In this document: positions 15,160-20,288 of the stretch, in pieces
Layout: every line of letters begins with the position of its first letter
Position numbering within the stretch: position 1 is the stretch's first letter
Origin: a bacterium
Lineage (GTDB): Bacteria > UBA8248
Direction of reading: 5' to 3'
NCBI GenBank assembly: GCA_965213625.1
Contig: CBDBZU010000004.1
Span: 576,001 to 640,000, forward strand
Length of the DNA stretch: 64,000 nt
Translations under genes and position numbers: made by a program
The notes under the pieces: model-generated
What the model was told of the DNA's origin: nothing
The model's database searches: none
What the model saw: only the letters and a program-made list of their open reading frames with translations

Positions 15160-16458
15160 ATGACAGCGACACTTGAACGCTTCTTCGGACTGGCGCAGCG
15201 CGGCACCACCGTGCGGACGGAAGTTATGGCAGGCGTGACGACGTTCCTGACGATGGCCTACATCGCCTTCGTGAACCCGCAGATCCTCTCCAGCGCGGGC
15301 ATGCCGTTCGACGCGGTGTTCGTCGCCACCTGCCTCTCGGCTGCGTTCGCCACGCTGATAATGGGTCTTTACGCCAACTACCCGATCGCCCTGGCGCCGG
15401 GCATGGGGCTCAACGCGTTCTTCGCCTTCAGCGTCGTGCTCGGTCTCGGCCACAAGTGGGAGGTCGCGCTTGGCGCGGTCTTCATTTCCGGCTTGTTGTT
15501 CCTGGCGATCAGCATACTGCCGGTGCGGCGCTGGATCGTCGAGGCGATACCGCAGGGACTGAAGCTCGCCATTGCGGCCGGGATCGGACTGTTCCTGGGC
15601 ATCATCGCGCTCAAGAACGCCGGCATCATCCAGGGCAGCAAGGCGACGCTTGTCACCGTAGGCCATCTGACGACGCCCGGGCCGCTGCTGTGCCTGCTCG
15701 GCTTCTGCCTCATCGTGGCGCTCGCCGCGCGCAAGGTGCCGGGCGCAGCACTCATCGGGATGCTGGCCGTCGCTGCCGCCGGCCTGATTTTCGGCGTTTC
15801 CGAATGGAAGGGCATCGCCTCGCTGCCACCCGACCCGACGCCGACGCTCCTCGCCCTGGACATCGCCGGCGCGCTTCAGGTGAGCATGCTCGCCGTGATT
15901 CTCACGTTCCTGCTCGTCGACCTGTTCGACACGACGGGCACGCTCATCGGCGTGGCGCACCAGGCGAACCTCCTCGATGAGGAAGGACGGCTCCCGCGCA
16001 TGCAGCGCGCACTGATCGCCGATTCGGCGGGAACGGTGGGAGGCGCCCTGCTCGGCACCTCGCCCGTCACGAGCTACATCGAGAGCGCCGCCGGGGCCGG
16101 CGCGGGCGGTCGCACGGGCCTGAGCGCAGTCGTCGTGGCCGTCCTGTTCCTCGCCTGCCTGTTCTTCGCTCCGCTCGCAGGCTCGATACCGCCCTACGCG
16201 ACGGCGGCGGCCATCCTATACGTGGCGTGCCTGATGGCGCGCCCGCTCATGGACCTGGACTGGGGCGACGTGACCGAATCGGCAGCCGCGATCATGACCG
16301 TCATCGCCATACCGCTGACGTTCTCCATCGCCGACGGCATCGGCCTGGGCGTCATCACCTACGTGCTGATCAAACTGATGGCGGGACGCGGAAGCGAATG
16401 CTCGCCGACGCTGTACGGGGTAGCGCTTCTGTTCGCCGTGAAGTTCGCGTGGCTGTGA
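15160..16458 (+). CDS. NCS2/AzgA family purine permease
   Basis: TTFLTMAYI, APGMGLNAFF, DLFDTTGT and YIESAAG..GGRTGL motifs. Confidence 0.95.
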   Translation: MTATLERFFGLAQRGTTVRTEVMAGVTTFLTMAYIAFVNPQILSSAGMPFDAVFVATCLSAAFATLIMGLYANYPIALAPGMGLNAFFAFSVVLGLGHKWEVALGAVFISGLLFLAISILPVRRWIVEAIPQGLKLAIAAGIGLFLGIIALKNAGIIQGSKATLVTVGHLTTPGPLLCLLGFCLIVALAARKVPGAALIGMLAVAAAGLIFGVSEWKGIASLPPDPTPTLLALDIAGALQVSMLAVILTFLLVDLFDTTGTLIGVAHQANLLDEEGRLPRMQRALIADSAGTVGGALLGTSPVTSYIESAAGAGAGGRTGLSAVVVAVLFLACLFFAPLAGSIPPYATAAAILYVACLMARPLMDLDWGDVTESAAAIMTVIAIPLTFSIADGIGLGVITYVLIKLMAGRGSECSPTLYGVALLFAVKFAWL

Positions 16459-16852
16459 GGTAAGAGGACGCGCGAGATGGAATAACGGCAATAGCTACAT
16501 CTTCCGTAGGGACAGGCCCCCGTGCCTGTCCTGACAAAGGGTAAGGTAGTCTGCTCCAATACGGGCGGGCACAGGGGCCCTCCCCTACGAATTCGGATCT
16601 AAACGCGAAATGCCCGGAGTCGATAAGGCGCAAAATCCTGTCCGGGGACCGGCGTGTCCGCCCTGTCCCAAAGTTGTCCGCATTTCGTCTACGTCGGCAT
16701 GAGGGCGGCGCAATAAAGTCCGATGGATTGTAGGGGTCGCATAAATGCGACCCGCAAGCCACGAACCGGTCGGGCCGATGGGGTGGACGCCCCCTTCCGG
16801 CAGTTTAGAATGTGGCGAGGCAACGTCACACACCGCCCGGAAGGAGGCATCC

Positions 16853-17533
16853 ATGGAAGGAGTCTACATCATCGGCATCGACTTGGCGAAAAACAGTTTT
16901 CAACTCCACGGGGCGCGCGCGGACGGTTCGGTAGCGTTCCGCAAGAAGCTCGGTCGGGCGGGTCTGCTGAACTTCCTGGCCAAACAGCCGCGCTGCGTGG
17001 TGGCGATGGAGGCGTGCGCGGGGGCGCACCGCTGGGGCCGTGAGATTGCGAAGCTCGGCCACGAGGTTCGGCTCGCGCCGCCGGCCTACGTGAAGCCGTA
17101 CGTGAAGCGCCACAAGAACGACGCGGCGGACGCGGAGGCGCGGCGTCTGATGCGTATCCCGGGGGTGGGTCCGGTTACGGCGTCTGCGATCCGTGCCTTC
17201 GCGCCGCCGATGGAGAACTTCCGGCGGGGCCGGGACTTCTCGGCCTGGCTGGGACTGGTGCCCCGGCAACACTCGACGGGGGGCAAGCCCCGCCTGGGCC
17301 GGGTATCGAAGATGGGCCAGCGCGACGTGAGGCGGCTGTTGGTCACGGGCGCGATGTCGGTGATTCGCCAGGCGCTCCGGCGCGGCGCGCCGCCGGGTTC
17401 GTGGCTGGCCCGGATGCTGGCGCGCAAGCCGAGGATGCTCGTCGCGGTGGCGCTGGCCAACAAAATGGCGCGCATCGCGTGGGCGCTGATGCGGAACAAG
17501 GACGACTACAGGGAACCGGCGCCCCTCGCCTGA
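16853..17533 (+). pseudogene. IS110 transposase/recombinase with in-frame internal deletion
   Basis: GIDLAK, MEAC and KNDAADAEA join directly to RRLMRIPGVG...STGGK; 226 aa, with the coiled-coil linker missing. Confidence 0.85.
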
Positions 17534-17559
17534 GCGGCGGGCGCGCGGATAGAGCCGGG

Positions 17560-17760
17560 AGGAATGTGGGCAGGCCACAGGAGGAGTAAGGGCAAACGGT
17601 CATCGAGACGGGGTCGGGGCAACCAGTTACATGCGACGAGCGAACCATCGAGCTCGCCGGGCCGATTCGGACCCGACCCGCGCATCTCCATACGGGCCCG
17701 CGGCCGTTACGAAGCGCCGCAACGAAGAGGCCGAATGTACGACTGAGTCGAACCGCTTTG
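17560..17760 (+). ncRNA. putative bridge/seek RNA of the IS1111 element (boundaries approximate)
   Basis: Contains TACATGCG (17628-35) and CGGGCCG (17658-64), matching the target flanks, and ATGTACG (17735-41), matching the right donor end. Confidence 0.75.
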
Positions 17761-17936
17761 CGCCGAACCCTCCCAAAAAACCGCTTGCATTCCAGGGGGG
17801 CGTCCATGTACGCATGTATGCGGCCCCTACAACAGCGTATTCACTCCCATTCATCAATCGCGTTTGACCCTTGCGCCCCCGCCGATTTTCCCCGATCATG
17901 GGTGGTAGTTTGTGAATCCCGAGGAGGAGTGAGAGC

Positions 17937-18209
17937 GTGTGGGGCGACAAGACGCCTGAGGGCGTGAAGGGCTCATCCGATCTCAAGCGCATCGCCACGG
18001 TGGGCGGGCAGATGGAGGCCCTTATCCTCAAAAGCAGGCTCGAGGCCGAGCGAATTCCCGTGCACCTGAGCTACGACTCGACGAGTTCGGTATACGCCTT
18101 CAGCCGCACGAACCTGGGCGCGGTGCACCTGATGGTGCCGGAAGCCTTCGCGGAAGCGGCGCTCCTCATCTACCAAGAGATCAGAAACACCGGACAATCG
18201 CCCGAATAA
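17937..18209 (+). CDS. DUF2007-like small protein
   Basis: EALILKSRLEAERIP...VHLMVPE pattern. Confidence 0.7.
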   Translation: MWGDKTPEGVKGSSDLKRIATVGGQMEALILKSRLEAERIPVHLSYDSTSSVYAFSRTNLGAVHLMVPEAFAEAALLIYQEIRNTGQSPE

Positions 18210-18235
18210 TCCAACCGATACACAGAGACGACGCC

Positions 18236-18790
18236 ATGACGAAAACACAAACGGACCTGGAAGCCCTGCGGGGACTTCTGCTGGAAAAATCGTATGAGAA
18301 AAAACAGGTTACGCTCGCCTCTGGCCGGGTGAGCGATTTCTACGTCGACTGCCGCCAGGTGACGCTGCACGGCGAAGGAGCGCGGCTCGTGGGCCGGGTG
18401 ATCTTCGAGCGCATTAATGGCGTCGACGCCGTGGGCGGTCCCACCCTGGGCGCGGACCCGATGGTGACGGCCGTCTCGTTGACGGCGGCGCTCGAAGGCC
18501 ACGACGTGCCCGCCTTCATCATCCGCAAGGCCGAGAAGGGCCACGGGATGCAGAACCGCATCGAGGGGTCGGGGAACCTGAAGCCCGGCATGAGGGTCGC
18601 CATCATCGAGGACGTGGTGACCACGGCGGCCTCCACCTTCACGGCCATCGACGCGGCTTTGGCCTTCGGCCTCGAGATCGCGCACGTCATCTGCCTCGTG
18701 GACAGGGAGGAAGGCGGACGCGAAAATCTGGCCAAGCGCGGCTACGAGCTCGACGCGGTGTTCACGAAGACGAGTCTGGTGGGAGAGTGA
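18236..18790 (+). CDS. pyrE: orotate phosphoribosyltransferase
   Basis: LASGRVSDFYVD, RKAEKGHG, IIEDVVTT and VDREEGG motifs. Confidence 0.95.
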   Translation: MTKTQTDLEALRGLLLEKSYEKKQVTLASGRVSDFYVDCRQVTLHGEGARLVGRVIFERINGVDAVGGPTLGADPMVTAVSLTAALEGHDVPAFIIRKAEKGHGMQNRIEGSGNLKPGMRVAIIEDVVTTAASTFTAIDAALAFGLEIAHVICLVDREEGGRENLAKRGYELDAVFTKTSLVGE

Positions 18791-19300: not shown

Positions 19301-19444
19301 CGACTGATGAAGGAGGGGTTGACGCGACTGATGAAGGAGGGGTTGACGCGACTGATGAAGGAGGGGTTGACGCGACTGATGAAGGAGGGGTTGACGCGAC
19401 TGATGAAGGAGGGGTTGACGCGACTGATGAGGAAGAGCTTGCGG
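19301..19444 (+). repeat. 24-bp tandem repeat CGACTGATGAAGGAGGGGTTGACG, five exact copies plus one degenerate
   Basis: Exact copies from 19301 to 19420, no spacers. Confidence 0.95.
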
Positions 19445-20195: not shown

Positions 20196-20288
20196 CCCGG
20201 TCGAGTCAAACGCTTGCTCATCGGTCGGGTCAAACCCTTCCTCATCGGTCGGGTCAAACCCTCGCTCATCGCTCGGGTTTTATATCTG
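20196..20288 (-). repeat. inverted, diverged array of the same 24-bp unit (CGACCGATGAGGAAGGGTTTGACC, about three copies)
   Basis: The reverse complement aligns with 19284-19444, including the AGATAT.AA.CCCG leader. Confidence 0.85.

Follow-up and report, generated by a model that had tools for sequence, protein, structure and literature searches.

An IS1111-group insertion sequence within a REP hairpin and the guide segments of its predicted bridge RNA

Introduction

How does a mobile element come to occupy one exact position within a short palindromic repeat, and can the choice of that position be read from the element's own noncoding DNA? The question is raised by a locus at 16730-17830 of a 64,000-nucleotide stretch of DNA (positions 576,001 to 640,000, forward strand, of contig CBDBZU010000004.1, GenBank assembly GCA_965213625.1) from a bacterium of the lineage UBA8248, which we refer to, at its full length, as the window. 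This locus is very probably a copy of an IS1111-group (IS110 family) insertion sequence (IS), inserted site-specifically in the 5' arm of a repetitive extragenic palindromic (REP) hairpin. An earlier note, made from the letters of the window without database searches, had read it as an IS1111-type element whose RNA guides are directed against the REP, and the strings on which that reading relied lie where they had been placed: a REP at 16730, TACATGCG at 17628-35, CGGGCCG at 17658-64, CCATACG at 17688-94 and ATGTACG at 17735-41.

The mechanism by which such elements move was established in 2024, and the present element does not change it. RNA from the noncoding region is reported to co-purify with IS1111-family transposases (TnpKpn4 and TnpPa11) and to be essential for transposition, according to the account in PMC11187229, which also describes natural retargeting between relatives for ISEc11 and ISXne4. 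In PMC11208160, 93% of the IS1111 elements in ISfinder are given as having a predicted bridge RNA in their right end.

Results

The element occupies a fixed position within a REP

The features that define the insertion are as follows.

16730..16753, + strand: partner REP (REP1), GTAG-first, with GTAG followed by the stem GGGTCGCAT-AA-ATGCGACCC; inverted repeat of 22 nt, 91%
16754..16771, + strand: spacer of the REP doublet, 18 nt, identical in copies A (window), B and D
16772..16777, + strand: left half of the target REP, comprising left target GGGC and core CG (16776-77); common to all five copies
16778..17812, + strand: IS body, 1035 bp including the right-hand CG core; deletion derivative of a 1380-bp element
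17813..17830, + strand: right half of the target REP, comprising right target CATGTATG, 3' arm CGGCCC and CTAC

The element splits the REP hairpin GGGCCG/CATGTATGCGGCCC-CTAC (the slash marks the insertion), with CG cores at 16776-77 and 17811-12; the split REP and REP1 together form an inverted REP doublet, located between a permease-like open reading frame (ORF) and a small ORF. A search of the organism's own genome (4.15 Mb, four contigs) identified five copies that are identical inside the element except for a single deletion: copies A and B have the short form, and copies C, D and E are 345 bp longer. In keeping with the expectation that further copies would share the site, all five sit in the same 14 bp, GGGC-CG-CATGTATG, preceded by GGGCCG and followed by CATGTATG. 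The empty site, in which GGGCCG is contiguous with CATGTATG as the 14-mer GGGCCGCATGTATG, occurs uninterrupted nine times in the genome, each time with one CG, five of the 14 sites being occupied. Comparison with these empty sites was used to fix the boundaries of the element: since CG stands on both sides of occupied sites and only once in empty ones, the element comprises 16778-17812 with a CG core. Insertion is therefore site-specific, with no target duplication beyond the core.

Removal of the element and one core had been predicted to restore a perfect REP, and that REP is real: at six of the nine empty sites the 14-mer is followed by CGGCCCCTAC, which gives a perfect hairpin. At the other three it is followed by a second REP hairpin, an arrangement that recurs on the right-hand side of copies B, C and E, and across the copies the right flank may be a simple REP, a compound REP or another REP type. 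The empty sites are REP doublets with variable spacers, and the target itself qualifies as a REP by its short palindrome, its GTAG/CTAC tail, its many copies, its intergenic place and its pairing in inverted orientation; the strict REP pattern GGGnnGCATnnATGCnnCCC occurs 52 times in the genome. The base preceding GGGC is C in four of the five occupied sites and A in seven of the nine empty ones, a difference which implies that this position is not required.

Contigs assembled from public sequencing runs include some in which xxGGGC is joined directly to 17811 CG-CATGTATG; these derive from other REP doublets of the genome and were rejected as excision products. In addition, a flank segment covering the spacer (16754-16773) is 85% complementary over 20 nt to 17390-17409 inside the transposase gene (tnp), which may be chance in G+C-rich DNA.

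A conserved two-armed RNA structure lies downstream of the transposase gene

The noncoding ends of the element comprise 75 bp upstream of tnp (16778-16852) and 279 bp downstream (17534-17812), the latter containing a predicted RNA gene.

17597..17755, + strand: predicted bridge/seekRNA gene, with closing helix P1 at 17597-17602/17750-17755; 119.9 bits with covariance model R1
17611..17679, + strand: target-binding arm, with P2 at 17611-18/17672-79, P3 at 17623-24/17669-70 and inner hairpin P4 at 17638-40/17653-55
17695..17732, + strand: donor-arm helices, P5 GGCC/GGCC at 17695-98/17729-32 and P6 GCGGC/GCCGC at 17700-04/17716-20

The set of homologues comprised 80 loci (57-80% protein identity), 67 of which extend at least 330 nt past the stop codon, and their 3' regions show a conserved scaffold broken by short hypervariable segments. 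An alignment of 64 distinct sequences was made from the window, two diverged relatives within the same genome and 61 homologue loci, dropping identical rows and L079, whose 3' region is not homologous; the two arms were derived with RNAalifold, and the closing helix was added by scanning. This analysis revealed six helices of 28 pairs in which 94.9% of cells are paired, as against 26-46% when the partners are slid by 1-3 columns. Compensatory (both-side) changes were found in 17 of the 28 pairs (135 cells), and none of 500 shuffles reached any of five structure measures.

The stem that had been proposed to enclose the target guides corresponds to P2, GGGTCGGG/CCCGACCC, where both sides have changed in six of eight pairs, as they have in all three pairs of P4. 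Within the donor-binding arm (17680-17749), P5 and P6 are 98% paired and four of the five pairs of P6 have both-side changes. Frequent G.U pairs (two positions of P2, for example, have 16 each) are compatible only with the tnp-sense strand, and the variable loop segments coincide with the places in which the earlier note had put the guides. A covariance model built from the alignment gave exactly eight matches in the genome, namely the five copies, the two diverged relatives and one truncated remnant.

Guide segments covary with target flanks and element ends

Four candidate guide segments were located in the loops of the two arms.

17628..17635, + strand: right-target guide UACAUGCG (DNA TACATGCG), complementary to the top strand of the core and right target, CG-CATGTA
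17658..17666, + strand: left-target guide CGGGCCGAU, identical to the top strand of the left target, core and first 2 nt of the IS; pairs with the bottom strand
17685..17690, + strand: right-donor guide CUCCAU, which pairs with left end ATGGGG (one G.U) and is followed by a nearly invariant AC
17735..17742, + strand: left-donor guide AUGUACGA, identical to right end ATGTA, core CG and the first base of the left end

Their order, in which the complement of the top strand lies 5' of the match to the bottom strand and the two overlap at the core, is that described for IS1111 seekRNAs in PMC11187229.

Both junctions could be read at 52 loci (the reference copy and 51 homologues), which represent 42 distinct guide pairs. 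When the left junction 9-mer (5 nt of target, 2 nt of core and AT) was compared with the 3' loop segment, elements scored 7.88/9 on average against their own segment and 4.70 against those of other elements, with scores of at least 8 in 28 of 42 own and 30 of 1706 cross comparisons. The reverse complement of the core plus 7 nt of right target, compared with the 5' loop segment, scored 7.12/9 against 3.86 (at least 8 in 21 of 42 own and 30 of 1714 cross comparisons), and the right end plus core plus A, compared with the 3' loop of the donor arm, 7.45/8 against 5.86 (22 of 42 and 81 of 1700). In each of these three tests the observed mean was reached by none of 5000 permutations. Thus, three of the four guides covary with the target or the ends, and the proposal that guides would covary with targets among homologues was borne out both by these 42 guide pairs and by eleven further loci from the genus, described below.

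Variation in the left-donor guide tracks that of the 4 nt lying between right inverted repeat and core, the variants of guide and right end including ATGTA, ATATA, ATAGA, ACAGA, ATACA, AGACA, AAACA and others. Across the clade the core takes the form NG (CG, TG or AG), with the same first base on both sides. The right-donor segment has the conserved form xxCCAT-AC, in which the motif CCATAC is almost invariant, and its variable bases pair with left-end positions 5-6 (Watson-Crick or G.U) in most loci (position 5: 43 of 52). CCATACG (17688-94) had been suggested as a guide for the left end; a pairing with that end is indeed present, but it runs to the 5' side (CTCCAT against ATGGGG) and not into the core. 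A second candidate for the right-donor guide, CCATCG at 17645-50, was rejected as being not conserved and lying in the loop of the inner hairpin.

We also noted two homologues with unusual junctions: at L018 what follows the right end is the sequence succeeding the donor-guide segment, and at L034 it is the right-donor zone. From these junctions, the DNA that encodes the guides may itself be a half-site for recombination.

Stepwise retargeting within the genus

The full element was used to search 23 genomes of the genus and was present in 12, its own included. Thirty loci were fetched, of which 11, from seven other genomes, had both junctions readable by patterns; these genomes may overlap with the first homologue set. 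At the 11 loci, the left side scored 7-9 of 9 and the right side 5-9 of 9. Among the closest relatives, which are 83-89% identical in DNA, retargeting has proceeded step by step, and changes of one or two bases in a guide track REP variants (GGGC/GGGA/GGGT on the left, CATGTA/CATATA on the right), as the following examples illustrate.

This genome: left-target guide CGGGCCGAT, right-target guide TACATGCG, site GGGC-CG-CATGTA
G002: left-target guide CGGGACGAT, right-target guide TACATGCG, site GGGA-CG-CATATA
G008: left-target guide CGGGTCGAT, right-target guide TATATGCG, site GGGT-CG-CATATA
G004: left-target guide CGGGTCGAT, right-target guide TACATGCG, site GGGC-CG-CATGTA (U.G wobble)
G011: left-target guide CAGGTCGAT, right-target guide ATATATGTCC, site TAGGT-CG-GACATATAT, a different REP type

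A second IS lineage, 74-78% identical, is present in the same genome in three forms (C4:927.6-929.0, C4:4129.7-4132.5 and C4:4124.8-4125.0 kb): a full copy, in which the left-target guide differs from the flank at two of nine positions; a copy interrupted by about 1.3 kb of other DNA, in which guide and flank agree perfectly; and a remnant reduced to the 3' half of the RNA gene plus a degraded right end.

Ends, inverted repeats and a predicted junction promoter

Four further features mark the element's ends and the start of tnp.

16784..16794, + strand: left subterminal inverted repeat TGGACGCCCCC, 6 nt in from the left end
17796..17806, + strand: right subterminal inverted repeat GGGGGCGTCCA, 6 nt in from the right end, core counted
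17785..17790, + strand: TTGCAT, the -35-like half of a predicted junction promoter, whose -10-like TACGAT forms only when 17809-12 joins 16778-79 in the circle
16843..16855, + strand: Shine-Dalgarno sequence GGAGG and ATG start, within a sequence like the right inverted repeat (IRR) and complementary to the left inverted repeat (17 nt, 88%)

The subterminal repeats are 11 nt long and 100% complementary, with extensions past them of 6 nt on the left and of 4 nt plus the CG core on the right; PMC11187229 gives 11-13 bp as usual for IS1111 elements, with extensions of 7 and 3. The spacing from repeat to repeat in a circle would be 12 nt here, compared with the published 9-10. The joined ends would give TTGCAT-N18-TACGAT, the very string that the earlier note had predicted for the circle junction, composed of TTGCAT at 17785-90, 18 nt, and TACG plus AT across the joined ends. 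TTGnnn lies upstream of a junction-spanning nAnGAT in 39 of the 52 loci, at a distance of 17 nt (37 loci) or 18 nt (two loci). By analogy with the family, in which junction promoters are known (as described in PMC12288879), this promoter would be expected to drive expression. A promoter scan returned a single weak site, at 16784-16811, and a terminator scan found none.

The IRR-like sequence constitutes a third copy of the repeat, 16784-16800 pairing with 16837-16853. Complementarity between the left repeat and the start region reaches at least 9/11 in 28 of 43 distinct homologue pairs, and the two covary, as in TGACCGCC/GGCGGTCA, TGGATGCC/GGCATCCA and TAGACGCC/GGCGTCTA. Judged from sequence, this fold-back at the start of tnp may provide translational control, blocking translation of read-through transcripts.

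The transposase and its internal deletion

In the window, tnp carries a deletion that had gone unnoticed in the earlier note.

16853..17533, + strand: tnp with in-frame deletion; the 226-aa product corresponds to residues 1-96 and 212-341 of the 341-aa protein P0001
17126..17140, + strand: deletion junction, 345 bp lost between short direct repeats (GGAGGCG perfect; 14/15 with flanks)

The full-length copies (C, D and E) encode the intact 341-aa protein P0001, of a length within the range of about 330-350 aa for IS1111-group transposases, which matches PF01548 (DEDD, RuvC-like; E 2.3e-12) and PF02371 (E 5.5e-23) in Pfam, and the NCBIfam model NF033542, 'IS110 family RNA-guided transposase', with 316.5 bits against a cut-off of 140. 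P0001 aligns over 98% of its length, at 41% identity, with plasmid proteins annotated as IS4321/IS5075 family. IS4321 and IS5075 are IS1111-family elements of enterobacterial plasmids, on which the subterminal inverted repeats of the family were reportedly defined. The C-terminal domain of P0001 shows a relationship to two solved transposases, those of IS621 and ISCro4 (8wt6, IS621: E 2.3e-08). Both P0001 and the window product contain GLVPRQHSTG, which corresponds to the C-terminal motif GL-P----S(t)G given as an IS1111-family trait in PMC11187229. Together, the DEDD and PF02371 domains of the full-length copies, the 11-bp subterminal repeats, the long downstream noncoding region and the CG core support the IS1111-type identity proposed for the element. 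Subterminal repeats, a short left noncoding end and a long right one are traits by which PMC11187229 and PMC11208160 define the IS1111 group.

The window product matches PF02371 strongly and PF01548 below threshold (16.6 bits against a cut-off of 29). The deletion, common to copies A and B, removes residues 97-211, which make up the final third of the RuvC-like domain match and all of the linker, and leaves the four DEDD residues and a complete C-terminal domain. Given this loss, the window copy is non-autonomous, and could at best be mobilised in trans by the three full-length chromosomal copies.

Contigs from public runs

Public runs were available as assembled contigs, which carry no read ends or strand; the tables for X18 and X19 are identical and possibly represent one data set. 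The contigs of the best DNA run break exactly at 16772, 17820 and 17134-40, as expected of a repeated element with two forms, and those of run X1 branch at 17134-17140. One RNA-library contig (X22) keeps to the conserved 5' scaffold as far as the first guide position (17627) and then continues with a different guide and hairpin, and so represents a relative with other guides.

Other repeats nearby

The long hairpin pair at 16505-16590 is built from another type of palindromic repeat, GTAGGGACAGGCCCC...GGGGCCCTCCCCTAC, and similar palindrome units are found at the orthologous place in relatives. Two hits to Rfam microRNA models at 16505-16590 fall on this palindrome and were dismissed as chance. 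Perfect 24-bp tandem repeats are present at 19301-19430 (5.4 copies), where one frame encodes a repeated LMKEGLTR peptide, and a second 24-bp array lies at 20198-20278 (3.4 copies).

Discussion

We have described the anatomy of an IS1111-group element, the identity of its site from five occupied and nine empty examples, and the conservation of an RNA structure in its 3' noncoding region; by analogy with the family, this RNA would be made and bound by the recombinase, and circles would be formed. In the mechanism we propose, the DEDD/serine recombinase would excise the element as a circle, its right end joined to its left at the CG core. An RNA of about 160 nt, transcribed from the 3' noncoding region, would fold into two arms closed by a helix. 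In the target arm, the top strand of CG-CATGTA would pair with UACAUGCG and the bottom strand of CGGGC-CG with CGGGCCGAU, and in the donor arm CUCCAU would pair with ATGGGG and AUGUACGA with ATGTA-CG-A of the joined ends. The recombinase would then exchange strands at the CG core.

A number of observations weigh against this reading. In the window alone, 141 of 2000 mononucleotide shuffles of the noncoding region match the restored site equally well (7 and 8 nt, sense plus antisense), and the single-sequence fold of 17534-17812 is no better than that of shuffles (z 0.80) and gave way to comparative analysis. A search of Rfam over 16000-18500 (E up to 1) returned no bridge-RNA family, so that the fold has no curated model. 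Guide matches read from the single window sequence are thus suggestive, and it is the comparative tests that put them far beyond chance; the inference of the earlier note was right, but the homologues were needed to establish it. Nor is the match between guide and flank universal. Between roughly a third and a half of the homologues fall short of 8/9, the right target of L018, L036 and L047 matches at only 3-4 of 9 positions, and several loci reach 3-6/9 on one side. Among the genus loci, the right target of L128 scores only 5/9, L125 has the guide of one variant beside the flank expected for another, and the right flank of L108 is IS-internal sequence; recombination between sibling copies would fit these three exceptions. 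The right-donor guide does not cover the core, covaries modestly and has mismatches or G.U pairs against ATGGnn, which makes it the weaker donor half. RNA-library contigs over tnp and the noncoding region carry 2-18 differences and represent near relatives; DNA carry-over is possible, and such contigs attest to presence in those libraries, not to transcription. Finally, the window copy is without a third of the RuvC-like domain and the whole linker, and the 18-nt spacer common to copies A, B and D fits gene conversion better than separate insertion events, so that the five copies do not amount to five independent insertions.

This last point bears on an alternative that we consider unlikely: the copy in the window may be an inert fossil, as may perhaps all members of the family in this genome, the identical copies having arisen by gene conversion or segmental events and the deleted copy being immobile even in trans. 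The absence of residues 97-211 from the transposase of copies A and B would fit such a history, as would the sharing of REP1 and its spacer. A 13-mer of that spacer occurs three times genome-wide, each time beside an IS copy, whereas the spacers of the nine empty doublets all differ; we suspect conversion among copies A, B (C4:2343.1 kb) and D (C4:1823.7 kb), its tract extending from the IS into REP1. Moreover, the assembled contigs of the public runs contain no circle junction and no empty allele of this locus, and no clean empty orthologous site was found in five relatives of the same genus, where the intergenic region is too variable and G002 keeps only REP1 at the orthologous place. However, three full-length copies have an intact 341-aa frame, and the identity of all five bar the deletion points to recent activity or to homogenisation. 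The ends, core, inverted repeats and all four guides of the window copy are intact, and the right flanks differ among copies, so the loci are distinct.

Two further alternatives concern how the site is recognised. The guide-like segments might act as DNA, as pseudo-ends or recombinase-binding sites, with no guide RNA involved. The DNA of the left-donor and left-target guides is letter-for-letter the junction sequence, and the right ends of L018 and L034, joined to internal noncoding sequence, indicate that internal sites can recombine. We nevertheless regard this as very improbable, because the helices are kept by compensatory changes and strand-specific G.U pairs, as expected of RNA and not of duplex DNA; each pair combines an antisense with a sense guide, as do the bridge RNAs described in PMC11208160; and noncoding-region RNA, in the account of PMC11187229, co-purifies with IS1111 transposases and is essential. 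Less probable still is recognition of the shape of the REP hairpin by the protein, with the short noncoding-region matches being coincidental. Homologues with other guides sit in quite different, often non-REP-like sites, each matching its own guides, and three of the nine empty and three of the five occupied sites are without the 3' arm of the simple hairpin yet keep the 14-mer. These observations outweigh the facts that every site here is a REP hairpin and that matches within the window alone are not strongly beyond chance.

The proposal of a natural REP-targeting guide RNA with a CG core is supported, but its kind is already published, in ISPa11 and IS621. By published description and not by sequence, the closest functional analogue is ISPa11, an IS1111 element of Pseudomonas aeruginosa. 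As presented in PMC11187229, it shares the IS1111-type layout, a fixed insertion place in a REP, and an RNA downstream of tnp in which the top-strand complement lies 5' of the bottom-strand match, the two overlapping in the target. The host, the REP family and the guides differ, and the present element has in addition a donor arm and a closing helix supported by covariation, the window copy being a deletion derivative. IS621, an IS110-group element of E. coli, likewise targets a REP and, in the description of PMC11208160, has a two-loop RNA with left- and right-target guides (LTG/RTG) and left- and right-donor guides (LDG/RDG), a core dinucleotide in each target guide, and discontiguous pairing of the RDG with the right donor (RD), which the right-donor guide without core in the present element recalls. 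According to the same source, IS621 has its RNA upstream of tnp, a reversed guide order, inverted repeats of 2-3 bp and a CT core, whereas the element described here has its RNA downstream of tnp, the order RTG before LTG and RDG before LDG, subterminal repeats of 11 bp and a CG core. ISPpu9 and ISPpu10 (IS110 family, Pseudomonas putida) also occupy REPs and form circles at a core dinucleotide, as reported in PMC12288879; there, ISPpu10 is described as using a junction promoter and ISPpu9 as having module-like partial copies. That report places ISPpu9 in the IS110 group, with no subterminal repeats, a bridge RNA upstream, and an extra small RNA, Ssr9, that is dispensable for transposition.

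In the deletion form (copies A and B) the ends and the core are retained, as are the junction-promoter half and an entire guide RNA gene. It is rather doubtful that this form is a maintained non-autonomous partner of the full-length element and not mere debris. If it were, it could be moved in trans as a natural RNA-guided 'mini-IS', and its 226-aa protein could poison recombinase assemblies and so damp transposition; internally deleted elements damp transposition in other transposon families.

In summary, the locus is a clean natural example of probable RNA-guided recombination, in which all four guides are legible and occupied and empty sites are found in one chromosome. The genus as a whole constitutes a natural data set on the tolerance of mismatches, such as G.U wobble and the outermost base of the left target, and on the evolution of retargeting.

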